Assembly: GCA_024281055.1 (NCBI GenBank) | Contig: JAMXLF010000092.1 | Coordinates: 1-36,805 of the forward strand | Direction of reading: 5' to 3' | From: Geobacteraceae bacterium | Lineage (GTDB): Bacteria > Desulfobacterota > Desulfuromonadia > Geobacterales > Geobacteraceae | DNA length: 36,805 nt | Part shown: positions 1 through 24,503 of the stretch, piece by piece | How the letters are laid out: each line of letters begins with the position of its first letter | Position numbering within the stretch: position 1 is the stretch's first letter | Notes under the pieces: model-generated | Database searches by the model: none | Seen by the model: the letters and a program-made list of their open reading frames with translations, nothing else | Told to the model about the DNA's origin: nothing | Program-made: the position numbers and the translations under genes

Positions 1-1
1 C

Positions 2-427
2 ATCGGCCACTTCCGCGCCGCCGCCGAGATCTGGCGCGGCCAGAAGTTCAACCCGAACGTCCGCACCTGGATCTGCCCGCCGACCCGCATGGATCAGGCC
101 CAGCTCAAGGACGAGGCGCTCTTCTCCGTTTACAGCGCCGTGGGCGCCCGGGTCGAGATCGCCGGCTGCTCGCTCTGCATGGGTAACCAGGCCCGCGTGC
201 CCGACGGGGTGAACATGTTCTCCACCTCCACCCGTAACTTCGACGACCGGATCGGCGACGGCGCCAAGGTCTTCCTCGGTTCCGCCGAGATCGGCGCGGT
301 TATCTCGAACATCGGGAAGATCCCGACGCCGAAGGAGTACCTGGCTATTTACAAGGAGAAGATTGAGCCGAAGAAGGATTCCGTCTATAAATATCTGCAG
401 TTTGATGAGATGGCGGAGTATAAGTAA
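2..427 (+). CDS. acnB: Aconitate hydratase B (AcnB), C-terminal fragment. The 5' end is truncated by the window edge.
   Basis: The in-frame translation from position 2 reads IGHFRAAAEIWRGQKFNPNVRTWICPPTRMDQ...GCSLCMGNQARV...STSTRNF...GKIPTPKEY. This matches the conserved C-terminus of the AcnB family (E. coli AcnB ends ...CMGNQARV...TSTRNFPNRLG...GKLPTPEEY). The ORF is open to position 1 and stops at TAA 425-427. Confidence 0.85.
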   Translation: MGHFRAAAEIWRGQKFNPNVRTWICPPTRMDQAQLKDEALFSVYSAVGARVEIAGCSLCMGNQARVPDGVNMFSTSTRNFDDRIGDGAKVFLGSAEIGAVISNIGKIPTPKEYLAIYKEKIEPKKDSVYKYLQFDEMAEYK

Positions 428-476
428 TCGTGGAATGGCTTGAGGCTGAGAGGCTGAAGGCTTGATGTAAAAAGAA

Positions 477-510
477 CCCCCGCTCTGGGCTTGCCCAGGC
501 GGGGGTTTTG
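477..510 (+). terminator. Rho-independent terminator of acnB
   Basis: Imperfect GC hairpin cccccgctctgggc / gcccaggcggggg followed by TTTT (506-509), about 50 nt downstream of the acnB stop. Confidence 0.6.
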
Positions 511-528
511 TCTATAAATCCTTTATTG

Positions 529-557
529 TTGACACATTAGAATGTAATCGATTAATT
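529..557 (+). promoter_or_regulatory. Putative sigma-70 promoter for the AT-rich foreign gene
   Basis: TTGACA at 529-534, a 17-nt spacer, then TTAATT at 552-557. This is about 40 nt upstream of ATG 597. It lies in an AT-rich leader that also has aggGa SD-like purines before the start. Confidence 0.4.
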
Positions 558-596
558 GATGCCAAGTTAAAGGTCGTGGACGTGAAGGGAGCGGGT

Positions 597-2897
597 ATGA
601 GAGCAGCTGTAACTGAGTATAAAAGAGCATGGGACGCATATTGTGTACGGCCGAATAGGATTGATTTGCTGAAGAAGGTAGAGAAACTACTTGAACTAAG
701 CCTGCAGCAAAATGACCGAGTTTGTGAACTCTTTTTCCAGGCAAAAGTTAATGACATCAGAAAGAATGTTCATACCTGTCTCGAATACTATGAGCGACTA
801 ACTGCAGAATACAATGCCACGAATGAATATGATGAGCTGGTACTTCTTGGCTGGTCACACGTCAATGCTGCATCCTTATATGAGGATGAAGAAGATGCTG
901 AAATGATGATGAATCATGCTGATGCCGCAATTTCCATTGGCAGGAAACAAAACGATCCTTTATTTTGGGAAATAGAAGGCAGTGGTTATGTAAACAAAGG
1001 GAAGGCGTGGTATTATTTAGATGACTTTGATAAAGAAATAGAAGCTTACGATACTGTTATAAAGAAGTTTACCAATAAGGATAATGAAAAGATCAAACAT
1101 CTAGTATGTACTGCGATTTACTACAAAGGCCTTACTTTAAGAGAGCAATCAAAAAACAATCTTGCAATTATCGAATATGATAAAGTTTTAGAAATAGCTG
1201 TAGGCTGCAAGTATACACCAATACATATTACGTCAATTAACTGTTGGAATGAAAAAAGTGACATTTTCTTAAAGCAAGAAAAACCATTAGATGCTGTGCT
1301 TGAACTAAATCAAGTGATAGAAATATATCGTGGAAAGAAAAACGTGCAAATCAGAAAGGCTGTTGCACAAGCTCTACTAAAAAAGAGTGATATTTTAAAA
1401 AAATTAGGTAAGAGTGAAGAAAGTATAGAAATTATTAAGTCCATCAGTGTTTCAGAAAGAGACAACGAAGAGATTCAGCAACGCATTGCCTTTATCAATT
1501 CTGTTTCTGAGAATCCGGAACTAGATGTACCTCAAAGTATTGACGAAATCATTAGGGCGTTTTCACAAAAGGATAAAGACAGCTTTTTCTCAGAAATGAA
1601 GGAACGTGAGAAAAGAACACAAGCATTTTTGGGTAAAGAAAGTAACTTTAACAGAGATGACAAAGCTTGCCTTTTCTTTGACCTTAGGGAATGGAATTCA
1701 TACACACCGGCCGTTCCAGACCAGCATGAAATTGATCGTGGCGGGGGATATTTTATTAGATATAATAATCAAGGGTTGGTAATCGATCCCGGATTTGATT
1801 TTATAAAAAACTTTGGGGCAGTTGATGGAAGATTATGTGATATCGACCACATATTCATAACTCATGCACACAATGACCATACTCAAGATTTTGAATCAAT
1901 ACTTAGTTTGCTATTTCAATACAATAAACGTAACAAGACGAAAAAGGTCAACCTTTATCTAAGTCAAGGCGCAGCAAGAAAATTCTCAGGTTATTTGCCT
2001 CTTCGAGATGCTTCTTACATTGGTAGAGTGGAGGTCTTAAACCAAGGAAACAAGGAGAATCCGCAGGTAATTCATCTGGCCGGGCTTGAAGGCGCTTCTG
2101 TAACGGTTTTAAAAGCTTATCACGATGATTCAATCACTCTCGACTATTCAGTTGGTCTTGGATTTGAGCTTGAATTCCCTGACGGTATGAGACGAGTTGT
2201 TTTTACGGGTGACACTGGACTGTTTCCCTTAAAAATGAATGAGGAGGGTAAAGTCATAAGAAAAGAGAGTGGAGATCCTGCTTTAGATATTGACTCGCAA
2301 GCTACCAGAGCTATATTCAACCAATATCCAATTACTTTTCGTGAGCCTGATTTGCTTATACCTCACATCGGGTCAATCAAAGAAGATGAATTCAAATCCG
2401 ATCATCGGTCAAAACCTGGGGGAGGTACCTTCGAGGAAAGTGTATACTTCTATCCGAATCATCTTGGACTCAGAGGACTTGTTTTGCTTTTAGCTAGGAT
2501 GAAACCAAAAGTGGTTGTAGTTAGTGAATTTGGTGAAGAATTAAAAAATATTAGATTTGATCTTGTAAGGGGTATAGAAAAATTACTTCGTAGTATGACC
2601 ACTCCAATTGAGAATAGTATATGTTTAGTTCCTGGGGATGTAACAGTGGTTTTCGATATCAAAAAAATGGAATTTCTTTGCCACGATAAAAAGACTTTTA
2701 TTGGATATAATGAAATTGGATACTTGGAAGTGCCAGAACCGATAGATAGTAGATTTTACTGCAATGAGGTAAGCCGTACATATATTTTTAGGAAACCCCT
2801 TCCAACAAAGAAACAAGCACTAAATTTTGTAAAGCATTATCATATAGATGTTGAAGATTACGGTTATCCCTACAATGAGAAAGCCCCGACTCAATAA
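597..2897 (+). CDS. Large two-domain protein. It has an N-terminal alpha-helical TPR-like region and a C-terminal metallo-beta-lactamase (MBL) fold hydrolase or nuclease domain. It appears horizontally acquired.
   Basis: A 767-aa ORF from ATG 597 (listed from in-frame GTG 576, but 597 has an agggagcgggt spacer). The C-terminal half carries MBL motifs: VIDPGFD, DHIFITHAHNDH (HxHxDH), VVFTGDTG and LLIPHIGS. The N-terminal half of roughly 370 aa is helical-repeat, TPR-like sequence. The gene is conspicuously AT-rich, as in atgagagcagctgtaactgagtataaaag..., against GC-rich flanks. It lies between the acnB terminator and a REP-like repeat. Confidence 0.8.
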   Translation: MRAAVTEYKRAWDAYCVRPNRIDLLKKVEKLLELSLQQNDRVCELFFQAKVNDIRKNVHTCLEYYERLTAEYNATNEYDELVLLGWSHVNAASLYEDEEDAEMMMNHADAAISIGRKQNDPLFWEIEGSGYVNKGKAWYYLDDFDKEIEAYDTVIKKFTNKDNEKIKHLVCTAIYYKGLTLREQSKNNLAIIEYDKVLEIAVGCKYTPIHITSINCWNEKSDIFLKQEKPLDAVLELNQVIEIYRGKKNVQIRKAVAQALLKKSDILKKLGKSEESIEIIKSISVSERDNEEIQQRIAFINSVSENPELDVPQSIDEIIRAFSQKDKDSFFSEMKEREKRTQAFLGKESNFNRDDKACLFFDLREWNSYTPAVPDQHEIDRGGGYFIRYNNQGLVIDPGFDFIKNFGAVDGRLCDIDHIFITHAHNDHTQDFESILSLLFQYNKRNKTKKVNLYLSQGAARKFSGYLPLRDASYIGRVEVLNQGNKENPQVIHLAGLEGASVTVLKAYHDDSITLDYSVGLGFELEFPDGMRRVVFTGDTGLFPLKMNEEGKVIRKESGDPALDIDSQATRAIFNQYPITFREPDLLIPHIGSIKEDEFKSDHRSKPGGGTFEESVYFYPNHLGLRGLVLLLARMKPKVVVVSEFGEELKNIRFDLVRGIEKLLRSMTTPIENSICLVPGDVTVVFDIKKMEFLCHDKKTFIGYNEIGYLEVPEPIDSRFYCNEVSRTYIFRKPLPTKKQALNFVKHYHIDVEDYGYPYNEKAPTQ

Positions 2898-2980
2898 CAG
2901 TGAGTAGAAAAAAAGGGACTGGCTATTTTATAAATAATCAGCCCGTCCCCTTTGCTTGCCTTCCCCTCTTCTTTACAACC

Positions 2981-3060
2981 TTTCCGGAATTCCGGGGACA
3001 CCATACTTAATTCAAAAGGCGGCCAATCGGCCGCCTTTGACGTCGTCACAACGGAAATAT
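2981..3060. repeat. REP-like hairpin repeat, copy A. Its core is ggacaccatacNtaattcaaaaggcggccaatYggccgcctttg.
   Basis: It contains the perfect hairpin aaaggcggcc-aatc-ggccgccttt. An approximately 80-bp near-identical copy lies at 7780-7860, and a shorter related copy at 23383-23412. Confidence 0.7.
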
Positions 3061-3161
3061 GCCTGCCCCCAGCTTTTTTCTTGACCCTGCTCCAGATCAC
3101 GGTAAAATGAGCGCAGTCCCTTGAAATTGCAAGAGATTATCACTGTTGTAGAGGAGACCCG

Positions 3162-3401
3162 GTGAGTCCCACCGTATTCAGGGCAGACGGCTTCCGGTTC
3201 TATTTCTTTTCCCGCGAAGAACCGCGACTCCATATCCATATCCATGGTGAAAGCGGCGAGGCAAAGTTCTGGATCGAGCCCCGGATCGAGATGGCTCAAA
3301 ACTACGGCTTGTCGGAAAAGGACCTGGGAAGGATCGGGAAACTGATCGAGGAGCATGAGGATGACATTCGCTGTGCGTGGCGCCGACACTTCGGCGGCTG
3401 A
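3162..3401 (+). CDS. DUF4160 family small protein
   Basis: GTG start. The N-terminus MSPTVFRADGFRFYFFSREEPRLHIHIHGE...FWIEP matches the DUF4160 family pattern. It overlaps the next gene, as is typical of DUF4160/DUF2442 pairs. Confidence 0.7.
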   Translation: MSPTVFRADGFRFYFFSREEPRLHIHIHGESGEAKFWIEPRIEMAQNYGLSEKDLGRIGKLIEEHEDDIRCAWRRHFGG

Positions 3402-3891
3402 GGTCACGAACATCTCGCAGCACGGGTTCTGGCTGTTGATCGGCGACCAGGAGGCTTTTCTCCCCTTCGAGAACTTTCCCTGGTTCAGGGAAGCACCGGT
3501 GGGGAGCATCCTTCACGTGGAGCTTCAGTCGCCGGACCATCTCTACTGGCCTGAACTGGATGTGGATCTTGAGACGGAGTGCATCCTTAATCCGGATGCA
3601 TATCCGTTGGTAAGCCAAGTACATGAGAACCAGGAGCGGTATGGGCCACAGGAAAATGAGGAGAGCATAAACCGGGAAAGGATAGACGATTGCGTTCTTG
3701 CACTGCTGCAATTGACGCTGCACCTCGGTTCACGTGCTTGGAAAGGGTTTGACTTCGAAGTCTTGGATCGACTCCATGCAAAAGGCTACCTGCTCGATAC
3801 TCGGAACAAGACCAAGTCTGTTGTGCTTACGGAAGAGGGCCTTGCCCGGTCAAAGGCGCTTTTTCGGGAATTGTTTGCCAAAGTGAAATAA
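3355..3891 (+). CDS. DUF2442 domain protein with a C-terminal helical extension that is DUF6429-like
   Basis: The N-terminal region VTNISQHGFWLLIGDQEAFLPFENFPWFREAPVGSILHVEL...LYWPELDVDLE is the DUF2442 signature. The C-terminal part, IDDCVLALLQLTLHLGSRAWKGFDFEVLDRLHAKGYLLDTRNKTKSVVLTEEGLARS, resembles small DUF6429-type proteins. The exact start is uncertain: ATG 3355, ATG 3361 and GTG 3376 are all in frame. It overlaps the end of the DUF4160 gene. Confidence 0.65.
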   Translation: MRMTFAVRGADTSAAEVTNISQHGFWLLIGDQEAFLPFENFPWFREAPVGSILHVELQSPDHLYWPELDVDLETECILNPDAYPLVSQVHENQERYGPQENEESINRERIDDCVLALLQLTLHLGSRAWKGFDFEVLDRLHAKGYLLDTRNKTKSVVLTEEGLARSKALFRELFAKVK

Positions 3892-3959
3892 GTGCCCTTT
3901 CTGCCAGCTCATCAGTATCATCTCGGTCCGGCGCGCCCGCAAAGAGGAGATAGCACTGT

Positions 3960-4184
3960 ATGAAAGCTAAGGATATTGACAAGACCTTCGACGAGGGTGG
4001 CGACATCTCCGCCTATCTCGATGTGACCAGGGCGAGAAGGCCCGAACAGGAGCAAAAACGGGTCAATGTGGATTTCCCGTTATGGATGATTCAGCAGCTC
4101 GACAAGGAATCACGGCGCCTGGGTGTGCCGCGACAGGCCATCATCAAGGTATGGGTGGCAGAACGTCTGGAGAAAGCTGGGTGA
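3960..4184 (+). CDS. BrnA-like (CopG/RHH-type) antitoxin, an orphan with no adjacent BrnT
   Basis: A 74-aa protein. ...DISAYLD...RVNVDFPLWMIQQLDKESRRLGVPRQAIIKVWVAERLE matches the BrnA antitoxin family pattern. No BrnT (DUF497) ORF is found nearby. Confidence 0.65.
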   Translation: MKAKDIDKTFDEGGDISAYLDVTRARRPEQEQKRVNVDFPLWMIQQLDKESRRLGVPRQAIIKVWVAERLEKAG

Positions 4185-4214
4185 TGATGCCCGAACCGCC
4201 GCTCCTCTCCAACT

Positions 4215-4241
4215 AAAAAGCCCGCTCTCCGCGGGCTTCAT
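4215..4241. terminator. Bidirectional intrinsic terminator between convergent genes
   Basis: The hairpin aaaaagcccgc-tctcc-gcgggcttca sits between the BrnA-like gene (+) and the response regulator (-). It belongs to the Geobacter-type terminator family. Confidence 0.6.
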
Positions 4242-4266
4242 ATGTTACGCTATACTGCAAGAAAGA

Positions 4267-4659
4267 TTACGAATCCAGGTGCGGAGCGGGTAGGTTATCC
4301 CCTGCCAATGCCTTTCCCACAACGCGCAGCAACTCTTTGAGCTTGAAAGGCTTGGTTATATAGCCGCTTTGTTGTAAGCCCTGCATCTTGGCGAAATGGT
4401 CGGGAAAGTCACTGACAAATACGATCGGAATGCTTGCCACTCTCTGGATATCTTCTGCTGCCATGATCCCATTGATCCTCCCGTCGAGAATCACTTCCAT
4501 GAGCACGAGATCGGGGTGTGTTGCCCGGACTACGTCGGCCACTCCCTCGCCCGTTGCGATGGCGCCGCATACGCAGTAGCCATGTGTGGTAAGTACTGTC
4601 TGGAGTAAGGCTGTTATCGAGCTTTCATCCTCGACGATGAGAATTCGCGGTTTTTCCAT
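4267..4659 (-). CDS. Single-domain response regulator (CheY-like receiver)
   Basis: MEKPRILIVEDESSITALLQTVLTTHGYCV...DLVLMEVILDGRINGIMAAEDIQ...ITKPFKLKELL has canonical receiver motifs (DE pair, phospho-Asp context, K). I chose the ATG at 4659 (MEKPRIL) over the listed upstream ATG 4737 because of the domain boundary. Confidence 0.8.
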   Translation of the reverse strand: MEKPRILIVEDESSITALLQTVLTTHGYCVCGAIATGEGVADVVRATHPDLVLMEVILDGRINGIMAAEDIQRVASIPIVFVSDFPDHFAKMQGLQQSGYITKPFKLKELLRVVGKALAGDNLPAPHLDS

Positions 4660-4888
4660 GGTCGGCCCCGGCACGGGTTTTTTCCCACCAGCATACCGCA
4701 AAAATAGGCCAATGAGCATTACTCCGGGATTGCACAACGATTACTATTCTGACATGAAAAGGGAGATGATGGGGTCCCGGTTGCCATCTGCCGGCGAGCG
4801 ATCGATGCTGCGCCACGCATCCGTTGCCATACCGGGCGATCGTAGTAAAATAGGAACAGAGAGATGAGTTACACAAGGAGGTGTCGAC

Positions 4889-5413
4889 ATGGCAACTTCA
4901 CGCGGTATTCAGTTGGCGCAGGGAATTCGCCAGAAAGTAGCTGACCTGAAGCAGGCATGCCGGGACGTGGACGAGAGTCTGGCCGCACGCGCACCCAATG
5001 GCCGGTGGTCCCCCAAGGAGATTCTTTCCCACCTGTGTGGTCCCGAGGGCGTGGGGCACCTGCCGCTCCTCAAGGCCTTTGTTGACCGCGATATCCCGCA
5101 GCTCGCTCTCGATGCCGGGAATCCGTTCTTTACCCCGCAGCGGGCGGCCATGAGCTTCAGCGAGCTGATGGCGGAGTGCGAAGCGAACTACCAGCGGGTG
5201 GCCGGCTTCGCCGAGGAGCTGACCGAGGAGCAACTGGCACGAACAGCGCATGTTCCGGAGTTGAAAGAGTCACCGCTCGGCGAGTACCCCACGCTCGACG
5301 GGATGATCCATGGGCTGGGCGAGTTCCACATCCAGTTTCACATCGACCACATGCGCGAGATCCTGGCAGCGCTTGCGCAGAGCGAGCAGAAGGGCAGGGG
5401 GGGCAGGTCTTGA
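4889..5413 (+). CDS. DinB/YfiT-like (DinB_2, DUF664) four-helix-bundle metalloenzyme-superfamily protein
   Basis: Strong SD aaggagg 7 nt before ATG 4889. ...NGRWSPKEILSHL...GMIHGLGEFHIQFHIDHMREI is typical of the DinB_2 family. Confidence 0.75.
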   Translation: MATSRGIQLAQGIRQKVADLKQACRDVDESLAARAPNGRWSPKEILSHLCGPEGVGHLPLLKAFVDRDIPQLALDAGNPFFTPQRAAMSFSELMAECEANYQRVAGFAEELTEEQLARTAHVPELKESPLGEYPTLDGMIHGLGEFHIQFHIDHMREILAALAQSEQKGRGGRS

Positions 5414-5451
5414 AATATAAGTTTTTGTCCTTTCGCCGCTCTTCACCAACG

Positions 5452-5488
5452 AAAAAAGCCCGCCAAAAGCGGGCTTTCCTGCCTGTCC
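5452..5488 (+). terminator. Intrinsic terminator or REP of the Geobacter-type family
   Basis: aaaaaagcccgccaaaagcgggctttcctgcctgtcc, a hairpin plus a conserved tail, lies downstream of the DinB-like gene. Confidence 0.6.
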
Positions 5489-5531
5489 AAACCAGTTTAA
5501 CGCAGAGAACTTGCTAAATGGTTATGGTAAA

Positions 5532-5873
5532 CTATGCGCAGGTTACCCGCATACGTCCGATCCCACTCTTTTTTCGGTCCTTGATGACGATATCAACATC
5601 ACGGCCGAGAAGGTTAAGGAGGTGGCAGAGCTTTTCAAGCGAGAATCCCCGGAGCTTACCATGCTGAATCATGGAAACCTTCGGCTGCGGGATCCCAAGG
5701 ATCGCCGCAGCCTGTGTCTGCGAGAGATGACGTTTTTCAATTATGTTGTTGATTTTCATTGCCAGATTACTTTTTACCAGTAATTCTTCGGAATCCGGTA
5801 ATCCCAAGTCTTCGAACACATTGCCTGAAGAGGGCGTTACACTAATTTCTTCCTGTAATCCTGTCTTTTTCAT
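5532..5873 (-). CDS. higA: HigA-type HTH (XRE family) antitoxin
   Basis: ...GNVFEDLGLPDSEELLVKSNLAMKINNIIEKRHLSQTQAAAILGIPQPKVSMIQHGKLRGFSLEKLCHLLNLLGRDVDIVI is the classic HigA-like antidote pattern. It lies immediately downstream of the HigB-like toxin on the same strand. Confidence 0.8.
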   Translation of the reverse strand: MKKTGLQEEISVTPSSGNVFEDLGLPDSEELLVKSNLAMKINNIIEKRHLSQTQAAAILGIPQPKVSMIQHGKLRGFSLEKLCHLLNLLGRDVDIVIKDRKKSGIGRMRVTCA

Positions 5874-5925
5874 ATCTAAAATCCTTTTAGATGCCCCACT
5901 TGGGCCAGTAACTTTAATGGACCTT

Positions 5926-6274
5926 CTAGTTGCCTGCCAATTCTTTCGCTTTCTTGAGCCGTGCCTTGAGGACCTCGATCTCGTATTTCGGGGTTTCTAT
6001 TCCCTTCTTCGACTTTTTCTGGAAAGCGTGCAGGACGTAAACTTTATCGCCGATCTTGACGGTATACATAACCCGGTATGTGTTACCGTCGTGGTCATCG
6101 CAAATTTCAATGACCGTAGCCCCGCCGCCGATGCCTTTAAGCGGTTTGGTCTGTTGTGATTTCCCTCCTTCTTGCGCGACCCGGAGAGCATACCCCATGC
6201 TGATCCGCGTCTCTTCCGGTAAGCCTCGCAGGACTTCCAGGGAGTCACCTAAAAAAAACTACATCCTTTGCCAT
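5926..6274 (-). pseudogene. higB: HigB-like (RelE/ParE superfamily, phage-derived COG4679-type) toxin, interrupted by a frameshift in an A8/T8 homopolymer
   Basis: The listed ORF 5926..6198 (MGYALRVAQEGGKSQQTKPLKGIGGGATVIEI...VYVLHAFQKKSKKGIETPK) lacks the family N-terminus. An ATG at 6274 with a strong SD (ggaggtgaa-ATG) encodes MAKDVVFF and then stops. Removing one base from the 8-A run (plus strand 6251-6258) restores a full-length 117-aa toxin: MAKDVVFLGDSLEVLRGLPEETRISMGYALRVAQ.... Confidence 0.7.
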
Positions 6275-6470
6275 TTCACCTCCGGATTCGTCATCTCTCG
6301 CAGGTGTGTTAATCATTATACCAAAAGAGGTATGGGGTCAAGCGTAAAAAAACGTTATTGCTCCGGCAACTAAACAGAGTTGAATTCCAAGGCATGGGGT
6401 CAGGCTTTGCATTTGGTGATATAAATACGGTGTCCCGAAAGCACCCGCGACATACAAGAGGCAACTACCT

Positions 6471-6749
6471 TCAGAAGCCGCTCTTCCGTGCTGCAAACCG
6501 CTCGCGGCGCCAGATGATTTCGCCGTTTCGATAGACCTCGCACACACGGTGCAGAGGGATTGAGAGCGGTTCGCCTGCTGCATCGGTCAGTTGTAAGGAA
6601 TAGTGGTCGTTCGGATCAAAGCGCACCTGGACAAGAGGAACCAGAATAATTCGTCCTTCGACGCGATCGTAGTAGCCGACGGTGAACTCTCCCCGGCCGT
6701 ATTCCGGGTCCCAGCGGATGTGATTGAGCAGTTCGCGGATTGTTATCAT
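6471..6749 (-). CDS. DUF504/MJ1316-like domain protein (UPF0248 type)
   Basis: MITIRELLNHIRWDPEYGRGEFTVGYYDRVEGRIILVPL...LHRVCEVYRNGEIIWRRE matches the conserved pattern of the DUF504 / MJ1316 RNA 2',3'-cyclic-end recognition domain family. Confidence 0.6.
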   Translation of the reverse strand: MITIRELLNHIRWDPEYGRGEFTVGYYDRVEGRIILVPLVQVRFDPNDHYSLQLTDAAGEPLSIPLHRVCEVYRNGEIIWRRERFAARKSGF

Positions 6750-6840
6750 CGGAGTACTAAAGTCCTGTTTCCTTCAATTCGACAATTATTACGTCGGTAT
6801 CCGTATCTCCAATGTTTTCGCCGATGTGTCCGGCACCTTC

Positions 6841-7542
6841 TCAAGAGGCCCCGCCGGACGATACCGCTTTTTCCACTATCTCCTGCTCGGCTGCTACAAA
6901 GCGGACAAGTGTCGGACCTGCAGTGAATGTGTATGTCGCATTCTCTATTTTCAGTCCGAGGCTCTCCAGTCCAAGGTTCAGTTCCGCTACAATCGGTTGC
7001 AGATACTTTTCCATGTCCTTTTCCCCTTGCGGCGGAAACGGCCCTGTCAGCTGGGGAGAGCTCCTGAACAACTGCCTCTTGACTGCCAATGACAGCTTGT
7101 CCTGATAGAAGACGAAATTGTCATATGCCCGCTGCCACGCAGGCAGTTCCATGATGTAACCGAGGTTGAGTGACAGGCGGCAGGAATATAGCCCCCCCTT
7201 ATTGTCCGGGGAAAATATCTCCAGCTTATAGGGCCGATCGAGCAGGCCGAAGTGCGGCAATTCGACAATGGTCTGCCCTCGCGATACAAAATCGAACCGG
7301 TTACGAACGGTCTTCTCGGGGATAAAGAAGACCACTTTGCCATCGCGCACGACAAGCGAATTTGCGGGGATCTTGAGGCGGATCAGTCCCCTGTAGAGGA
7401 TGAGGACGCACAGGATCATGAAAATCAGTGCTGCCGTCCACTGCTCGTGCGAAAGCGTATAGACGATTCCGACCAGAAGGGGCAACAGCAACATATAGAA
7501 TATCATTCGTCCTAAAATCCGGATCATTCTCTGAGCCCACAT
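6841..7542 (-). CDS. Membrane protein with two TM helices followed by a bacterial PH-like (DUF304-type) domain and a C-terminal extension
   Basis: An N-terminal hydrophobic pair (MIFYMLLLPLLVGIVYTL / AALIFMILCVLILY) is followed by ...LVVRDGKVVFF..., typical of the bPH_2/YdbT-like architecture. It is on the same strand as, and upstream of, the DUF504 gene. Confidence 0.55.
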   Translation of the reverse strand: MWAQRMIRILGRMIFYMLLLPLLVGIVYTLSHEQWTAALIFMILCVLILYRGLIRLKIPANSLVVRDGKVVFFIPEKTVRNRFDFVSRGQTIVELPHFGLLDRPYKLEIFSPDNKGGLYSCRLSLNLGYIMELPAWQRAYDNFVFYQDKLSLAVKRQLFRSSPQLTGPFPPQGEKDMEKYLQPIVAELNLGLESLGLKIENATYTFTAGPTLVRFVAAEQEIVEKAVSSGGAS

Positions 7543-7779
7543 CGGTTACACCCCCTATTCAAGAAAACCCAACATAACGGGCAAAGCCTTGGCCAATGAT
7601 GGCATTTATTAAAGTTTACACCAATTCCGGAAAGTGAACATTGCAGCGATTTCGACTCGGTCTATTGCCGCAGCTCAATTTGTTCGACATGGCCTACAAC
7701 CATCTGATCGCCCGTCCTCGCGGTCTGAAGCCACTTGACAGCGCGCCCGCGCCCCGGCTCACTCCCCTGGAGTCACACC

Positions 7780-7860
7780 TGAATTCCCTGATTTCCTGGG
7801 ACACCATACGTAATTCAAAAGGCGGCCAATTGGCCGCCTTTGTCGTTTCCCGTGGAAATC
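7780..7860. repeat. REP-like hairpin repeat, copy B
   Basis: cctgaattccctgatttcctgggacaccatacgtaattcaaaaggcggccaattggccgcctttgtcgtttcccgtggaaat. The core of about 46 bp differs from copy A (2995-3040) at 2 positions. Confidence 0.7.
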
Positions 7861-8196
7861 CTTCGCTTCTGGTCCAGGAGCGGCCGCATCTGTCCCTTAC
7901 GGAGTTGGGAAAGACTCTGAATCGGGATATTTCACCGCTGGGCAGGGCAGGGCGGCGATTGCGGATGGAGTCGGCGCAAGGCGTTCGGCTCAGGAAGGTG
8001 ATCGAAAAGGTCAGGGGGAGAGCTGCAGGAATAGCAGAAAGGTAAGCCTGACCGCAGGCGGCGATGGAGATTGAAGTTTTGGGCCAGCGGACGTACAATG
8101 AAAATATCAGGAGGGAAGCGGGTTGAAGATTCCCCGTTTCCCGGTTGGTCTCAATAAATGAACGAAACGTGGAGCATTCGAGGGGAGGTGTACGTT

Positions 8197-8502
8197 ATGC
8201 GCATGCTCATGAACATCACGTTTCCCCACGGGGAATTCAACGCAGCGGTCAAGAACGGTACCGCCGGCAGGAAGATCAGGATGATTCTGGAAGATGCCAG
8301 GCCGGAAGCTGTTTATTTTACCGAGCAGCACGGCCAGCGCAATGCCGTCGTGATCATCAACGTTGACGACGTGTCGAAAATCCCCGCATTTGCCGAACCG
8401 TGGTTTCTGAATTTCAACGCAAATGTCGAGTTCAGGATCGCAATGACCCCTGCGGATCTGGAAAAAGCGGGGCTGGAGGAACTCGGGAAGAGATGGTCCT
8501 AA
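8197..8502 (+). CDS. DUF3303 family protein
   Basis: An SD (gaggggaggtg) precedes ATG 8197. MRMLMNITFPHGEFNAAVKNG...AEPWFLNFNANVEFRIAMTPADLEKAG follows the DUF3303 pattern: an N-terminal MxxMxxWxxxPE..AA motif and a C-terminal W..L.FE..PV..DEE motif. Confidence 0.6.
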   Translation: MRMLMNITFPHGEFNAAVKNGTAGRKIRMILEDARPEAVYFTEQHGQRNAVVIINVDDVSKIPAFAEPWFLNFNANVEFRIAMTPADLEKAGLEELGKRWS

Positions 8503-8564
8503 CGGCGAGCTGCAGGTGGCCATACAGCGGCCTGCCCAATAATCGCAATGTAATGCAAGGCGAG

Positions 8565-8586
8565 GCCCGCGGAAGCGGGCTTTTTG
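8565..8586 (+). terminator. Intrinsic terminator
   Basis: gcccgc-ggaa-gcgggc followed by TTTTT, downstream of the DUF3303 gene. Confidence 0.65.
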
Positions 8587-8631
8587 CGGTGAGCGGGGGC
8601 AATGGGGTCAGGCTTTACAGAGGGAGAAGTG

Positions 8632-9075
8632 ATGCGTTCTAGCTCCAATCTTACCATCGAGTGGGTCAAACCGGACATTGCTGCCGAGCGGTGGGAGTTT
8701 TTTCATCATCCGGAAAAGCAGGGCTTCTACCGGCGCCACACCATCGGCTGGGAAGAGATCCTGTCGGGGTTCGATGCCGGCCGTCTGGCCCCTTATCCCC
8801 GTTCGGACCGGATCGACGGCATCCCGGTCGCTCTCTCCTACAGCAGCTACGACGACTATGCCCGCTACCTGGCCAAGGCCAAGCGGGGCTACCGCAGAAA
8901 CTATTCCCTGATGGAGGAGACGCTGCAGAGCGAGGGAACACTTACCCTCCCTGCGCCAATCGTCCTGGAGTGCGGCGGCGAAGCGCTCCTCTTCTCCGGC
9001 TACCGCCGCCTCTGCCTCGCCTGGAACTACGGCATGATCCCCTTCGTCTGGCTCCTCCCGGTAGCGCCTGCCTGA
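8632..9075 (+). CDS. Hypothetical protein
   Basis: An SD (gggagaag) lies 2-3 nt before ATG 8632. The 147-aa ORF in GC-rich DNA shows no recognisable motif. Confidence 0.55.
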   Translation: MRSSSNLTIEWVKPDIAAERWEFFHHPEKQGFYRRHTIGWEEILSGFDAGRLAPYPRSDRIDGIPVALSYSSYDDYARYLAKAKRGYRRNYSLMEETLQSEGTLTLPAPIVLECGGEALLFSGYRRLCLAWNYGMIPFVWLLPVAPA

Positions 9076-9092
9076 AAAACGAGGGAGGATAA

Positions 9093-9117
9093 AAAAACCC
9101 GCCAAATGCGGGCTTTC
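9093..9117. terminator. Bidirectional intrinsic terminator
   Basis: aaacccgc-caaat-gcgggcttt sits between convergent genes (8632..9075 + and msrA -). Confidence 0.6.
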
Positions 9118-9139
9118 CCGTCAGTTGTCCGCGACTTCC

Positions 9140-9676
9140 CTAGTCGCGGACCCAGTGGCAGGTGTACCCTCCCGGATTTTTCACCAGGTAGTCCTGGTGG
9201 TACTCTTCGGCCCGCCACCACGGGCCCGCATGGGTGATTTCGGTGACCACGGGTCTCTTCCACTTGCCGCTTGCATCCACCTCGGCCTTGATCTTCTCCG
9301 CGATCCGCTTCTGCTCCTCGTCATGGTAAAAGATGGCGCTCCGGTAGCTGGTGCCCACATCGTTCCCCTGGCGGTTCATGGTGGTCGGATCGTGCATCCT
9401 GAAGAAGAACCGAAGCAGGGCCTCGAAGCTGGTCTTGGTCGGATCGAATTCGATCCGCACCGCCTCGGCATGTCCCTCGTGGTTGTGGTAGGTCGCGTTC
9501 GGCACCATCCCGCCGGTATAGCCAACCTCGGTCGAAATCACTCCCGGCTGCTTGCGCAAAAGATCCTGCATCCCCCAGAAACAGCCTCCGGCAAGGGTTG
9601 CCACCTGGCTCGCCGCAGGGGCCTGCGGCGTCAGTCGTTTCTCAAGCCCTTCTTCCGAATAGGTTTTCCCGGTCAT
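9140..9676 (-). CDS. msrA: Peptide methionine sulfoxide reductase MsrA
   Basis: [11 protein letters not shown]... (the catalytic GCFWG motif), [17 protein letters not shown] and YHQDYL are all MsrA hallmarks. Confidence 0.9.
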
Positions 9677-9779
9677 CTCAGTCTCCTTCCCGGCTGTCTG
9701 GTCCGCGCCATTGGAAACCTTATGGAGTCGCCTTTCTGGTATTTTCGGGGAAGATGCTCCTCTGTGGTGAGTGGCGATC

Positions 9780-10070
9780 CTATTCCTTCACCCGCTTCGA
9801 TGCCGCCCGATTAACGGCAAAATTCTCCCGCTTGCCGACGGCCACCACGATGACAACAATGCGGTTGTCGTCAACCTGGTAGACCAGCCTGTAGCCGGCA
9901 TTCTTCAGCTTGATCTTGTAGCAATCCGCCATGCCCGAGAGCCGGGCAGACTCGACGCGGGGCCGCTCCAGCCGCTCGGCGAGCTTTTTCTTGAACTGTT
10001 CCCGGATTCCTCCGTCCAGCTTGTGCCACTCCTTCAGAGCGGATTCCCTGAATTCGAGGCTATAGCTCAT
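9780..10070 (-). CDS. relE: RelE/StbE-type toxin
   Basis: [19 protein letters not shown]...[23 protein letters not shown] is the RelE/ParE family pattern. It overlaps the upstream antitoxin gene by 11 nt. Confidence 0.85.
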
Positions 10071-10305
10071 CGAGGGAAACCTTGACGGTCGGTTCGCGTT
10101 CCCGTTCTTTGACGATGCGCCCCATCTCGTAATCCTCCAGCTTCTCCATCAGCACCTCGAAAGCCTCGGCAGGGATGATATAGGCACTCGGCTTGTTGTG
10201 GTTGAGGATCGCCACGGGTGCGCCTTCGGACTGGTTGATGATCCGGGAAGGGTTCTTCTTCAGGTCGCTGATGCTGACCGATGCCCGGGCATAAAGACGT
10301 TCCAT
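10060..10305 (-). CDS. relB: RelB/StbD (Phd/YefM-like) antitoxin
   Basis: MERLYARASVSISDLKKNPSRIINQSEGAPVAILNHNKPSAYIIPAEAFEVLMEKLED. An SD ggagg lies 7 nt upstream of ATG 10305. The listed longer start at 10329 lacks an SD. Confidence 0.8.
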   Translation of the reverse strand: MERLYARASVSISDLKKNPSRIINQSEGAPVAILNHNKPSAYIIPAEAFEVLMEKLEDYEMGRIVKEREREPTVKVSLDEL

Positions 10306-10455
10306 ATAATGACCTCCAATTAGATACAATTACAGAGACAAATATAGGTCACAATTTCCGGGATTGCAAGCGTTCTGTTCTACCTGACGGGGGTTTTTGC
10401 TTGTCATGTTAGAGGAATTTCAGTAAGCTGATGCCAGCAAGTCACCGAGAGGGCG

Positions 10456-10506
10456 ATGAGTCCAACCGTATTCAGGGAGAGCGCACGTCTCACCTCTCAC
10501 GTCTAA
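10456..10506 (+). pseudogene. Decayed 5' remnant of a DUF4160 gene
   Basis: atgagtccaaccgtattcaggg encodes MSPTVFR, identical to the first seven residues of the DUF4160 gene at 3162, with 19 of 21 nt identical. The frame stops after 16 codons. The upstream DNA also echoes the 3121-3161 promoter region (attgcaag...tagaggag). Confidence 0.4.
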
Positions 10507-10536
10507 CGTCTGACTTTCTTTATATCAGGAGGCATC

Positions 10537-11556
10537 ATGACCATCTTCGACGGCATCAGGCGGCAGCTGCGGACCGTGATCGAATGGCGGGACCCCTCGC
10601 CGGAGGCGCTTTTCACGCAATGGAGCGATAACGGCGACGAGATCAAGAACGCCTCGAAGCTGATCGTCAACCCGGGCCAGGGGTGTATCTTCGTCTACGA
10701 GGGGCAGATCCGCTCGGTGCTGACCGAGCCCTGCATGGTGGAGCTCACGACAGCCAACATCCCTTTCTGGACGACCATCACGCGGTTCATGCAGTCCTTC
10801 CAGAGCGAGCACAAGGTCGGCCTTTACTTCTTCCGCACCGCGAAGGTGCTCAACCAGAAATGGGGGACCCTTTCCCCGATCAAGTACGAGGACCCGAAAT
10901 ACGGCATTCCGGTGGCGGTGAAGGCCTTCGGCAACTTCAGCTGCCGCATCTCCGAGCCGCGCGATTTCTTCGTGAGCGTCGTGGGGGCGCACACCGACTA
11001 CACCATCGCCGACTTCCGGACCGTCATGGCGGAGCGGCTGATCCAGTCCATCACCGACTACATCGCCGAGTGCCGCCTCGCCTACACCGAGATCGATGCC
11101 CATCGGGAGGAGATCGCCGCCGGTCTGGCTCCGAGGTTGACCGCTGATTTCGGCAAGCTCGGCTTTGTCGTGGACGACTTCCGGATCGAGGGGATCAACT
11201 TCGACGAGGACACCGTCCGGCGCATCGGCCGCATCGCCGACATGACCGCCGAGGCGCAGGCGGCGAAGGCGGTGGGGTTGGACTACGGCTCCGTCCAGAG
11301 ACTGGAGGCGCTGCGGGAAGCCGCCCGGAACGAAGGGGGCGGGGCCGGCATCGGCATGGGGCTCGGGGCCGGTGTGGGCCTCGGGCAGACCATCGCCCAG
11401 GCCATGGGGCAGCCGGCCGCCGGTGCGCCGCAGCCTGCCGGGGCCGGTGGCGATGCCGCGGCACGGCTTGCCCAGCTCAAGCAGATGTTCGACCAGGAGC
11501 TGATCACGGCGGAGGAGTTTGCCGCCAAGAAGAAACAGATACTGGATACGGTTTAG
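10537..11556 (+). CDS. SPFH/band-7 family protein with a C-terminal SHOCT domain (COG4260-like)
   Basis: An SD aggagg precedes ATG 10537. A Gly/Ala-rich linker and a C-terminal AARLAQLKQMFDQELITAEEFAAKKKQIL (SHOCT motif) are present. The N-terminal 230 aa match the SPFH-type protein pattern. Confidence 0.75.
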   Translation: MTIFDGIRRQLRTVIEWRDPSPEALFTQWSDNGDEIKNASKLIVNPGQGCIFVYEGQIRSVLTEPCMVELTTANIPFWTTITRFMQSFQSEHKVGLYFFRTAKVLNQKWGTLSPIKYEDPKYGIPVAVKAFGNFSCRISEPRDFFVSVVGAHTDYTIADFRTVMAERLIQSITDYIAECRLAYTEIDAHREEIAAGLAPRLTADFGKLGFVVDDFRIEGINFDEDTVRRIGRIADMTAEAQAAKAVGLDYGSVQRLEALREAARNEGGGAGIGMGLGAGVGLGQTIAQAMGQPAAGAPQPAGAGGDAAARLAQLKQMFDQELITAEEFAAKKKQILDTV

Positions 11557-11591
11557 ATATTCAGCACGTGTCGGATCATAACTCCCCTCGC

Positions 11592-11647
11592 CCCCTCTTA
11601 GCTTAAGAGGGGGGATAAAAACCTCCTCCCCTTGAGTTAAGGGGAGG
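11592..11647 (+). repeat. Tandem GC-rich hairpins in the SPFH/zinc-ribbon intergenic region
   Basis: Hairpin 1 is cctctta-gc-ttaagagg (about 11592-11613). Hairpin 2 is cctcccctt-gagtt-aaggggagg (11625-11647). Neither is followed by a T-run. Confidence 0.5.
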
Positions 11648-11730
11648 TCGGGAGGGGTTATGCAAGAGCGATAAAGCCTGCAAAGGAATCGTTGCAAACG
11701 ACTCTTAGACCCATTTTCGAGGGCATGATC

Positions 11731-12581: not shown

Positions 12582-12793
12582 GTTAGCCTCCTTCTCCGAC
12601 GGTTATCCAGGGGCTGCTCGCCCCCCCTGTCGACACTATTGCAATGAGTCGGCCAACTCCCCATGTTTCGTTCGCAATGCCGCAAATGCCCGCATCCCGC
12701 ATCATCCCCTCCCACCGCCGTACCCCGTATGTTTGTACCCTAAACACCAGCTGCCTAATTATTAGGCAGGTCCTGGAAAGGCGAGGGGGTCAG

Positions 12794-12816
12794 AAAGCCC
12801 GCCAGAAGCGGGCTTT
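12794..12816 (+). terminator. Geobacter-type terminator/REP hairpin
   Basis: aaagcccgccagaagcgggcttt. A second, decayed copy lies at 12862-12884 with a conserved tail running to about 12912. Confidence 0.5.
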
Positions 12817-12924
12817 CCTGCCTCCAACATGCTATAATGAAAAAGGGAATTCGTGGGAAAAAACCCGCCAAAACGGGCTTTCCTGCCTGTCTCGCAGGGC
12901 TGCCGCGTGACACGCTCTCCTTCC

Positions 12925-13788: not shown

Positions 13789-15099
13789 ATGAAAAAAATC
13801 GCAGTAGCCCTCGTGGCCGTCGTCGTGCTCGGAACGATTCTGTTCTATTTTCTCGGGTCCCCCGCTCCCAAGGTGTCACTGAGCCCTGACGCAGGCCTGA
13901 TCGGCGCCGGCCGTGAGCTTGCCCTGAAGCTGGACGCACAGGGAGGGGGGCTGAAAAAGCTGTCTGTCAGCGCAGTACAAGGGGAGAAGATGGTCACGAT
14001 CCTGGCGAAGGATTATCCCCCTGGCAGCCGCCAGGCCGCGGAGGCGTTCAATCTGGCCAAAGCCGGCCTGAAGGATGGGACATTCACCCTGCAGGTCGAT
14101 GCGACAGGCTCCGCACCCCGTTTTGGCGCGGCCAGGACCACAACCCAGGCCCATTCCTTCACCCTGGATACCAAGCCGCTGGACGTGGCGGTCGTGAGCA
14201 TCGCCCATAATATCAACCAGGGCGGCGCGGGACTGGTCGTCTACACCGTTTCGAAGGAGGTTGAAAAGACCGGCATCGTAATCGCCGACCAGTTTTATCC
14301 GGGGTACCGGCAGGGGGGGGATTATTACGCCTGTCTCTTCCCCGCGCCCTACGACATGGACCCCGGCAAGTTCGTGCCGAAGGTGCTGGCGGTCGACCGG
14401 GCAGGGAACGAGAGCCTCGTGGGGATCATCTATCACGTGACTCCCAGGTCCTTTTCGACGGACCGGATCGATCTGACGGATGCCTTCCTCGAAAAGATCG
14501 CCGCGGAGTTCAAGGGAAAGTTCCCGCAAGGGGGAACCAACCTGGAGATATTCCTCAAGGCAAACAGGGACCAGCGCCAGCAGGACCGCAAGGCGATCGC
14601 CGACTACGGCCGGAAGACCTCTCCGACGCCGCTCTGGCAGGGACCCTTTCTCCGCATGCCGAACACCGCCCCCCTCGGCGGTTTCGCCCAGGCACGCACC
14701 TATGTATACCAGGGGAAAGAGGTCGACCGGCAGACACATCTCGGCTTCGACCTGGCATCGGTGGCCCACGCCGACGTGCCGGCCGCCAACCGCGGCACGG
14801 TCGTCTTTGCCGGCGACTTCGGCATCTATGGCCAATGCATCATCATCGACCACGGGCTGGGGCTGCAGAGTATCTACGGGCACCTGAGCCGGATCGGCGT
14901 CAAGCAGGGTGACAAGGTGGAAAAAGGACAGATAATCGGCAGTACCGGGGCCACCGGCATGGCCGGCGGGGATCACCTCCATTTTGAAACGGTAATCGCC
15001 GGGCAGTCGGTCAATCCGGTCGAATGGTGGGACCCGCACTGGATGAAAAACAACGTCACGGGCAAACTCGAATTGATCAAGGCGCCCACGACCAAATGA
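13789..15099 (+). CDS. M23 family (LytM-type) peptidoglycan metalloendopeptidase with an N-terminal signal anchor
   Basis: I used ATG 13789 (MKKIAVALVAVVVLGTILF...) rather than the long upstream ORF 13468. The C-terminus ...HLGFDLASVAHADVPAANRGTVVFAG...IIIDHGLGLQSIYGHLS...GDHLHFE carries the M23 HxxxD / HxH signature. Confidence 0.8.
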   Translation: MKKIAVALVAVVVLGTILFYFLGSPAPKVSLSPDAGLIGAGRELALKLDAQGGGLKKLSVSAVQGEKMVTILAKDYPPGSRQAAEAFNLAKAGLKDGTFTLQVDATGSAPRFGAARTTTQAHSFTLDTKPLDVAVVSIAHNINQGGAGLVVYTVSKEVEKTGIVIADQFYPGYRQGGDYYACLFPAPYDMDPGKFVPKVLAVDRAGNESLVGIIYHVTPRSFSTDRIDLTDAFLEKIAAEFKGKFPQGGTNLEIFLKANRDQRQQDRKAIADYGRKTSPTPLWQGPFLRMPNTAPLGGFAQARTYVYQGKEVDRQTHLGFDLASVAHADVPAANRGTVVFAGDFGIYGQCIIIDHGLGLQSIYGHLSRIGVKQGDKVEKGQIIGSTGATGMAGGDHLHFETVIAGQSVNPVEWWDPHWMKNNVTGKLELIKAPTTK

Positions 15100-15111
15100 A
15101 AAAGTAGCAAA

Positions 15112-15134
15112 AAAGCCCGCCAAAAGCGGGCTTT
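15112..15134 (+). terminator. Geobacter-type terminator with an extended REP tail
   Basis: aaaaaagcccgccaaaagcgggcttt is followed by cctgtctttctcgccgggattgcaccacgccgacc (to about 15175). This tail is similar to those at 12885-12912 and 19376-19410. Confidence 0.6.
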
Positions 15135-15211
15135 CCTGTCTTTCTCGCCGGGATTGCACCACGCCGACCTGAGCGTGCCAATCCGACTCGAATCCTCTTC
15201 GGTTCTCAAAC

Positions 15212-19247: not shown

Positions 19248-19357
19248 GGTTCCTCCTCTGTTAGATGATCCGAGCTTGGATGGGGTCGCACGGTCAGGTA
19301 TACAACATTCTAAGGGGATTTCAAGGAGCTGGAGGCAAGGGGGAAGTTATAAGAAAG

Positions 19358-19410
19358 CCCGCCAATAGCGGGCTTTCCTGCCTGTCTCGCCGGAACTGCA
19401 TCATGCCGAC
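19358..19410 (+). repeat. Geobacter-type terminator hairpin with an extended REP tail
   Basis: aaagcccgccaatagcgggcttt-cctgcctgtctcgccggaactgcatcatgccgacc. Confidence 0.6.
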
Positions 19411-23294: not shown

Positions 23295-23382
23295 CCCCGC
23301 TCCCCCCGTTGGAAATAGAGCGACCGTTACCAGTATACCACGCTCTTTCCGCCCGGCGATTCGGGGACATCATGCCCAATGC

Positions 23383-23412
23383 AAAAGGCGGCCAAAAGGC
23401 CGCCTTTCGTTG
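23383..23412. repeat. REP-like hairpin, third member of the aaaaggcggcc...ggccgccttt family
   Basis: caaaaggcggcc-aaaa-ggccgcctttcg. It shares the stem sequence with copies A and B at 2995-3040 and 7798-7843. Confidence 0.6.
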
Positions 23413-23978: not shown

Positions 23979-24307
23979 CGCATCTCCTTTATTACACAGA
24001 TAATTTCCAGCCGACGGACATCGGCAATGGATCATTAATACTTCATGAAAAGGGGGGCGGTCAAGAAAAAAGATAAAAACGGTCTTATTTATTTCCTAGT
24101 ATGAGAATTCTGCATTTTGCTCACCCCTCTTAGCCAATACTAAGCGTTTTGCATACCGCCTCCAGTCGTTCTTAAATCATTTACCTCTTTAAGTACGGCA
24201 AGTTACGATTATGGTATTGCCATTGCTATTGCTGATAGAAGCAGTGGGAAGATTCGTTTTATGGTGATATCGGATACCAGAATTATTATCGAGGGTCAGG
24301 AGGGCGC

Positions 24308-24460: not shown

Positions 24461-24462
24461 TC

Positions 24463-24489
24463 CCGGATATCCTGATCTCGGATATCCGG
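24463..24489. promoter_or_regulatory. Perfect 10-bp inverted repeat (candidate operator)
   Basis: ccggatatcc-tgatctc-ggatatccgg lies immediately after the small ORF and next to a minus-strand terminator. Confidence 0.35.
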
Positions 24490-24503
24490 CCGTCGCTTGC
24501 CCG

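Follow-up and report, generated by a model that had tools for sequence, protein, structure and literature searches.

A horizontally acquired gene behind acnB in a Geobacteraceae genome: a predicted TPR-fused, ElaC-like phosphodiesterase and its possible role in conflict

What is an AT-rich gene for a two-domain protein doing directly behind the aconitase gene acnB of a GC-rich bacterial chromosome, and what might its product be for? The question is raised by a stretch of 36,805 nucleotides (contig JAMXLF010000092.1 of assembly GCA_024281055.1, from a Geobacteraceae bacterium), which is called the window below and to which all positions refer unless another locus is named. The gene, at 597-2897 on the forward strand, joins a tetratricopeptide repeat (TPR)-like N-terminal part to a metallo-beta-lactamase (MBL) fold hydrolase, hence the name TPR-MBL used here. 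The explanation that fits best as a whole, to which we give about an even chance, is that the gene makes up a recent, self-contained cassette of ~2.45 kb encoding a TPR protein with an ElaC-like phosphodiesterase module, perhaps with a role in conflict.

Composition and borders of the cassette

The open reading frame (ORF) that ends with its stop codon at 2897 has two candidate start codons in the ORF list, GTG 576 and ATG 597. The second is the start in the public gene call of an identical protein (P0001, 766 aa) and is preceded, 5 nt upstream, by a Shine-Dalgarno-like AAGGGAG (585-591, forward strand). The gene is therefore taken as 597-2897, a coding sequence of 766 aa plus stop on which the ORF list, the public protein and the AlphaFold2 (AF2) model described below agree; the 767 aa given in the first-pass annotation is corrected by one residue. 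The identical gene was seen only on a Logan contig of run SRR19769809.

The gene stands out by its base composition. Its GC content is 36.9%, against 57.4% in the remainder of the window, and at third codon positions (GC3) it falls to 30.6%, where neighbouring genes have 53-88% (acnB itself 88%, with an overall GC of 61%). When GC is followed along the window, the other intervals of 2.3 kb have a mean of 57.5% (standard deviation 3.6, minimum 46.7%), so that the gene lies ~5.8 standard deviations under their mean and below their minimum as well. GC drops from 0.56-0.58 to 0.30-0.34 at ~500 and is back to at least 0.5 from ~2950, which delimits a low-GC block of about 2.45 kb, from ~505 to ~2950. 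At four homologue loci elsewhere the gene is just 2-5 points lower in GC than its own flanks, that is, host-like. Because the composition is extreme here and host-like in these homologues, horizontal acquisition of the gene is well supported, and the window copy would be an unusually fresh transfer from what appears to be an unsampled low-GC lineage. The first-pass annotation had called the gene AT-rich and horizontally acquired, and it was right on both counts.

On the left of the block, the native GC-rich flank is the 3' end of acnB (2-427, forward strand), which codes for the C-terminus of aconitase B (Pfam Aconitase, E=3e-12; 79-89% identity to AcnB of metagenome-assembled genomes of Geobacteraceae and Desulfuromonadales). 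It is followed by an intrinsic terminator hairpin with a T-run (~473-507, forward strand), found by a terminator scan (folding free energy, dG, -30.9 kcal/mol; z -5.0), which forms the left cassette boundary. The right end of the cassette is a hairpin immediately after the stop codon (2900-2959, forward strand; dG -20.6 kcal/mol, z -3.8), a possible terminator whose T-run is weak. Beyond it, at the cassette border, lies a host repeat, a 63-nt double-hairpin element resembling a repetitive extragenic palindrome (REP) (2981-3043, forward strand; direct-repeat family D8, dG -28, z -4.7), with further copies in the window at 7784-7846 (89%) and 23350-23412 (70%). The cassette (~505-2950) would thus have been inserted between the acnB terminator and the host REP-like element. 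This agrees with the earlier description of a gene placed directly after the terminator and followed by a REP-like repeat.

The second hairpin of the REP-like element reads AAAGGCGGCC-AATC-GGCCGCCTTT, and the first two copies (2981-3043 and 7784-7846) bracket a toxin-antitoxin-rich stretch at 3.1-7.7 kb.

No target-site duplications or terminal inverted repeats were seen, as 440-600 and 2880-3110 have no word of 8 or more nucleotides in common, direct or inverted. A scan of positions 1-9000 against Rfam returned no RNA family. Synteny was compared with 16 related genomes (L007-L022), Geobacteraceae-like but distant, with an AcnB identity of 66-89%, over the 10 kb that follow acnB in each, and no gene 3' of acnB in these loci is common to the 36.8-kb window. 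It may be that this lineage varies, or has undergone rearrangement, throughout the region downstream of acnB.

Is a gene so foreign likely to be active in its present host? Upstream of it is a putative sigma-70-type promoter (529-557, forward strand), composed of TTGACA, a 17-nt spacer and TTAATT, which had been described as the gene's own consensus-like promoter. The description fits the -35 element at 529-534, a perfect consensus, but not the -10 element at 552-557, which is weak: TTAATT agrees with TATAAT at three positions out of six, the A of position 2 not being among them, and a consensus promoter scan did not call the 529-557 promoter. This weak element and the very foreign codon usage (GC3 30.6%) would suit a gene that arrived recently and is carried as an inert passenger, unexpressed or non-functional in its host. 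However, the frame of 766 codons is intact and keeps every family-invariant residue, and the gene has both a good Shine-Dalgarno sequence and a hairpin of its own. A mere passenger therefore seems very improbable.

Architecture and predicted catalytic centre

The AF2 model of the TPR-MBL protein, built on 49 homologues, is confident (predicted local distance difference test, pLDDT, 89.7; predicted template modelling score, pTM, 0.80). It has 17 helices across aa 1-344, a TPR-like alpha-solenoid encoded at 597-1628, and then an MBL sandwich at ~aa 355-766, within a module that spans aa 345-766 (1629-2894, both parts on the forward strand). Pfam matches the module to Lactamase_B_2 (E=6e-13, 49.3 bits against a cut-off of 27) and to Lactamase_B (37.3 bits, cut-off 22.7), and HxHxDH with downstream His/Asp metal ligands in an alpha-beta/beta-alpha sandwich places it in the MBL superfamily. 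In the window copy the TPR part is weak by sequence (TPR_8, E=4e-5, under the cut-off); the family profile matches the consensus TPR at E=1e-87, with the 34-residue helix-turn-helix repeats of a TPR solenoid. The helical N-terminus and MBL C-terminus of the first-pass annotation are thus borne out, and the motifs it had picked out, HAHNDH, FTGDTG and PHIGS, are located at aa 423-428, 536-541 and 589-593.

To which branch of the superfamily does the hydrolase belong? The nearest folds of the module are ElaC/RNase Z, PNGM-1, AtsA-type sulfatase, class II phosphodiesterase (PDE), PhnP and Apyc1. Foldseek agrees with this, and the MBL-module profile search gives 8gyg at E=2.7e-12 and the Apyc1 of phage Bsp38 at E=6e-5. 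These ElaC-type neighbours and profile matches point to an ElaC/RNase Z-like hydrolase and not to the beta-CASP-like one proposed at first. A beta-CASP nuclease (RNase J, CPSF73, Artemis/SNM1) was considered and rejected, as the module has no insertion domain with motifs A-C between motifs 4 and 5 and its nearest folds are those of the ElaC/RNase Z/PDE branch. Judged by sequence and predicted fold, TPR-MBL would be an uncharacterised, TPR-fused branch of the ElaC-type MBL phosphodiesterases.

Conservation was read from an alignment of 49 full-length homologues and from a 12-sequence alignment of the MBL module. Every invariant residue falls within the MBL module, and the window protein carries all of them. 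Just 5' of the first MBL strand is a family signature, R364-x-W366-N-S-Y-T370-P371 (1686-1709, forward strand), in which R364, W366, N367, S368, T370 and P371 are invariant in 49/49 full-length homologues; in the 12-sequence alignment the whole of RxWNSYTP is invariant, Y included. Metal-binding motif II, H423-A-H425-N-D427-H428 (1863-1880, forward strand), is invariant in both alignments and aligns to HLHFDH of 8gyg. Among the 49 homologues, H509, D539, H590, H622 and E644 are further invariant residues that are candidates for metal ligands or catalysis, and G382-G383-G384-Y385, D397-P398-G399, E433, K462 and G646 are invariant too. With a ~420-aa module that contains R364-x-W-N-S-x-T-P, GGGY, HAHxDH, H509, D539, H590, H622 and SEFGEE, the window protein is a member of the 'RxWNSYTP' family. 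That the protein is a catalytically intact, ElaC-like MBL phosphodiesterase appears well supported.

In a hand comparison with the motif order of the B. subtilis RNase Z, PHIGS and NHLG are taken to lie at the HEAT and HST motifs of RNase Z, and Glu644, in the strand-end SEFGEE, presumably holds the position of the motif V His, going by sequence order. We infer from this that the last metal-binding His of RNase Z has been replaced by Glu (E644) in the TPR-MBL family.

Could the protein nonetheless be a housekeeping paralogue of RNase Z or RNase BN that processes tRNA 3' ends, with an incidental TPR part? The resemblance in fold would allow it, and the comparison took in RNase Z/ZipD/RNase BN, ELAC1, B. 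anthracis BA1088 (1zkp) and PNGM-1. The RNase_Z equivalog TIGR02651 scores only 27.6 bits, against a cut-off of 292.95, and matches aa 391-478 only. RNase Z has a flexible arm between motifs III and IV. TPR-MBL lacks this flexible-arm exosite, with 30 residues from the motif III His, H509, to the motif IV Asp, D539, and no inserted arm in the model. In place of the GTG-type N-terminal motif of ElaC/RNase Z it has the invariant RxWNSYTP, and it adds a 340-aa N-terminal TPR solenoid and, towards the C-terminus, further strands and a helix (aa ~676-755). The putative His-to-Glu change (E644) also speaks against such a paralogue, as do the foreign origin of the gene here, the rarity of the family (~1,200 clusters among 1.84 billion representatives) and the lack of any conserved housekeeping context, and we consider it highly unlikely.

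Relatives and their genomic neighbourhoods

The TPR-MBL family is widespread but rare, uncharacterised and without a curated name. A word-indexed search yielded 246 homologues, of which the best (the protein itself aside) have 41-46% identity across 80-96% of the length. Any labels these carry read 'tetratricopeptide repeat protein' or 'MBL fold metallo-hydrolase', and among the sources given by name are Oceanidesulfovibrio, Humidesulfovibrio, Pelobacteraceae, Pirellulales and a Pacearchaeota archaeon. When 1.84 billion representatives were searched exhaustively with a profile of the MBL module, 1,192 clusters (at 50% identity) came out with E<=1e-30 and 2,231 with E<=1e-3, most of them with N-terminal extensions of 150-850 aa; P0001 itself was found at E=8.7e-156. 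Across the family, identity is ~18% in the fast-evolving TPR part and ~42% on average in the MBL part, where it reaches 57-58% to the nearest relatives. In a neighbour-joining (NJ) tree the window protein clusters with L006, L095 and L001. One homologue of 1,097 aa, on an IMG/VR contig (L088:4907-10454), lies beside a tyrosine integrase (DUF6538 plus Phage_integrase), a possible integrative-element context for that copy.

In the same tree, one monophyletic clade is nested among the TPR-fused lineages. It comprises MBL-only proteins (~415-425 aa) and MBL proteins with a C-terminal extension of 160-360 aa, encoded in tightly packed operons. In 14 of the nested-clade loci the gene directly upstream, at -1, is DndB/DpdB-like, and 12 loci include a radical SAM gene. 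The operons come in two flavours. In the first (L090:1129-8668 and L161:566-8050), a PD-Lambda-5_A-like gene is followed by genes for a 135-aa protein, an SNF2 helicase (ZorD/DpdE-like, E=5e-67), a 344-aa protein, a DpdB-like protein (E=1e-36), the MBL protein and a radical SAM protein. The second (L147:3293-11044 and L169:1529-9456) consists of a DndB fusion, a B12-binding radical SAM protein, a GHKL ATPase, a DndB-like protein and the MBL protein. One further locus (L153:520-15579) combines both flavours and continues with a TmtA-like gene (E=8e-74). Members of this operon family have one or two DndB/DpdB-like genes with radical SAM, and the SNF2 versions also have PD-Lambda-5_A-like and PDC-M38A-like proteins.

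The content of these nested-clade operons suggests an as yet undescribed system for DNA modification or defence. No paper was found that describes them or that joins DndB, radical SAM and metallo-beta-lactamase, and a reappraisal paper on phosphorothioates leaves MBL proteins unmentioned. The operon family, with its DndB/DpdB-like, radical SAM and MBL genes, is the most useful by-product of the analysis and a concrete lead to a new system. The most divergent member of the whole family, a protein of 660 aa with a non-TPR N-terminal extension (L089:4390-11384), is flanked by three radical SAM genes, one of them with a SPASM domain, and the link between MBL and radical SAM may accordingly predate the DndB-linked clade.

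Do the TPR-fused members have dedicated partners as well? Clustering of the neighbours at 80+ loci, together with individual look-ups, gave no conserved neighbour for them. Among the 141 genes found at +/-2 positions of 58 TPR-fused loci, the commonest Pfam families are generic radical SAM (5 genes), 3-dehydroquinate synthase II (3) and NTP_transf_2 (3), and the remainder are mainly PemK, integrases and assorted metabolic enzymes. A +1 neighbour that recurs at four loci was tried as a partner and rejected, being an archaeal-type 3-dehydroquinate synthase II whose recurrence reflects synteny shared locally by close relatives. Beside the closest homologue (L006/L094, 57% identity in the MBL part) lie genes for a Phd/ParE pair and a small nucleotidyltransferase. 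It is well supported that the TPR-fused members stand alone and act without a dedicated partner gene. The gene had been put forward as a single-gene module, and as such it holds up: a self-contained cassette with its own hairpin here, and no conserved partner gene at the loci of its relatives.

In the window, the immediate flanks of the TPR-MBL gene are acnB upstream and a DUF4160 gene downstream. Toxin-antitoxin-type modules had been noted on the downstream side, and Pfam recovers them within the next 7 kb as DUF4160, DUF2442 with DUF6429, a weak CopG-like antitoxin, Gp49 (HigB-like) with HTH_37, and ParE with Phd, interspersed with ordinary genes for a response regulator, DinB, MsrA and an MJ1316-domain protein. 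At 3162-3891, the DUF4160 gene overlaps a DUF2442 gene with a C-terminal DUF6429, a fused variant of the DUF4160/DUF2442 pair.

These neighbourhoods bear on what the enzyme might act upon. One alternative is a hydrolase of small molecules or esters, such as an AtsA-type aryl- or alkyl-sulfatase, a lactonase or a diphosphatase, for which the TPR part would be a scaffold and which would have no role in nucleic-acid chemistry or conflict. The match to 8gyg could be read in this way, but identity to it is ~16-21%, over motifs II-IV that are common to all ElaC-type enzymes. Moreover, the neighbourhoods share no metabolic pathway and the nested clade is embedded among DNA-associated proteins. Such a hydrolase seems improbable.

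A phosphodiesterase that degrades signals is a somewhat better candidate. Its substrates would be cyclic nucleotides, mono- or oligomeric, of the kind hydrolysed by Apyc1, YhfI and class II PDE1. The TPR part would localise or regulate it, and it would serve as a regulator or an anti-signalling factor and not as a nuclease effector. The structural similarity to Apyc1 is real, but it is no better than that to other ElaC-like enzymes, and TPR-MBL scores 11.5 bits against the Pfam cut-off of 50 for Apyc1 (PF23023). Apyc1 is a protein of ~250 aa that has no TPR and is phage-encoded, whereas the TPR-MBL family resides in chromosomes and is all but missing from phages. No cyclase and no CBASS, Pycsar or type III CRISPR gene was seen around the gene in the window or in the set of 141 neighbours, and the partners in the nested clade (DndB/DpdB-like, SNF2, radical SAM) indicate nucleic-acid chemistry. 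A role in signal degradation is thus possible but rather unlikely.

The case for a conflict role, and the rest of the window

The preferred explanation, a self-contained cassette for a TPR protein with an ElaC-like phosphodiesterase module, invites comparison with defence systems of similar make-up. The MBL nucleases known from defence (HamM, Avs-trypsin-MBL and canu, from nuclease-protease pairs of Hachiman, Avs, Lamassu and DRT and from the canu system) are ComEC-like and protease-activated (PMC12799240). The likeness consists in an MBL-fold hydrolase as latent antiphage effector and in the TPR domains of some canu loci (PMC12799240). TPR-MBL differs from them in having neither a ComEC-type MBL domain nor a protease partner, and no protease was found among the Pfam-scanned genes of the window (3162-7542 and 8107-11697, the ORFs at 7641-8098 being left out).

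With STAND/Avs proteins TPR-MBL has in common a TPR array and a hydrolytic effector domain in one polypeptide. However, it contains no NTPase (NB-ARC, NACHT or P-loop), since the TPR part runs straight into the MBL module at aa 344; the domain order is reversed, with the TPR N-terminal and the effector C-terminal, and PADLOC returns no Avs match. Of the sensor-plus-nuclease layout suggested in the first-pass annotation, the two-domain combination of TPR and MBL stands, but the NTPase switch of STAND/Avs TPR sensors is absent. The likeness to TPR receptors of the RRNPP type (Rap, PlcR) is generic to TPR, the output domain is entirely different, and no cognate small peptide gene was identified.

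How might such a protein work? TPR-MBL would be a cytoplasmic two-domain enzyme in which a variable TPR solenoid is joined to a conserved binuclear-metal phosphodiesterase of the ElaC/RNase Z branch. The MBL module would cleave a phosphodiester, with RNA or DNA as the most likely substrate and a nucleotide second messenger as a less likely one. The rapidly diverging solenoid may bind a protein or peptide ligand and would gate or target the activity, with no NTPase switch in between. The last and weakest step is that its most likely role would be in conflict between genomes, as an effector of defence or of the abortive-infection type. A more specific proposal is an NTPase-free immune sensor-effector whose hypervariable TPR part detects a phage or other foreign protein and frees the ElaC-like nuclease, the same module also serving as effector or processing enzyme in a DndB/DpdB-like system; in this full form we think it unlikely.

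A defence or abortive-infection role of the TPR-MBL protein is plausible, on support that is indirect. It is suggested by the conflict-type operons of the nested clade, by the accessory, patchy distribution of the family, and by the toxin-antitoxin neighbours both here and at the closest homologue. A series of results weighs on the other side, and the role is made less secure by the housekeeping neighbourhoods of the other TPR-fused members, the want of PADLOC matches and the absence of the family from mobile-element databases. The 141 neighbours are mostly metabolic or housekeeping genes with no recurrent partner, and the few among them that match PADLOC include several generic radical SAM or helicase genes. 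The PDC-S09 matches that were traced are small NTP_transf_2 proteins at L006/L094, and the pVip matches are suspected to be unrelated radical SAM enzymes. The TPR-MBL protein itself matches 0 families at E<=1 in PADLOC-DB v2.0.0, which dates from 2023, and the MBL proteins of the nested clade have no PADLOC match. A known defence system was rejected as an identity on these results, and NCBIfam gives only sub-threshold matches of RNase Z type, in line with the earlier remark that no named system was recognised.

Mobile-element collections tell a similar story. A tblastn search of 50,697 phage and 72,556 plasmid records found no family member, and IMG/VR holds 2 family loci among 2.9 million contigs. 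A phage or plasmid origin was rejected on this basis, together with a search of BFVD that returned single-domain matches only and no full-length match. The host-like GC of the homologues elsewhere suggests long residence in their genomes rather than rapid turnover, and the top structural neighbours of the MBL module include enzymes that are not nucleases (a sulfatase, a cyclic-nucleotide PDE, a diphosphatase). No paper was found on the combination of TPR and MBL domains, nor on Apyc1 with tetratricopeptide, and gating of the active site by the TPR part is purely conjectural. The defence or effector module of the first-pass annotation is thus favoured by the nested-clade operons and the toxin-antitoxin neighbours, but not by the neighbourhoods of the 58 loci or by PADLOC.

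What is at stake depends on which of these holds. If TPR-MBL is a ligand-gated nuclease, it would be a case of a hydrolytic effector under the direct control of a TPR sensor, with no need for the STAND NTPase of Avs/NLR-type receptors, and defence systems, in which ComEC-type MBL nucleases have recently been found, would gain an ElaC-type effector. Through its MBL module the stand-alone gene is also tied to the conserved operon in which DndB/DpdB-like and radical SAM genes occur with SNF2 or GHKL ones. Should the protein prove to be no more than an accessory phosphodiesterase, the gene would be an ordinary horizontally acquired orphan in a variable region rich in toxin-antitoxin genes.

Several further features of the window deserve a record. 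On the reverse strand at 6471-7542, the gene for a 92-aa MJ1316 RNA cyclic-end recognition protein adjoins an ORF of 233 aa, which has a hydrophobic N-terminus and no Pfam match. A second stretch of low GC (43-50%) lies at 24001-26000, with small ORFs at 24417-24905 (forward strand) and 25044-25478 (reverse strand), and may be another horizontally acquired islet. A second family of intergenic repeats consists of six terminator-like hairpins at gene ends, of the form AAAGCCCGCC-NNNN-GCGGGCTTTCC(TG), located at 5438-5484, 9077-9123, 12777-12823, 12842-12888, 15095-15141 and 19337-19383. Finally, the ORF at 31303-34968 encodes a protein of 1,221 aa with at least 12 degenerate repeats around 'LWKSDGTxxGT', irregularly spaced at 114-396 nt.

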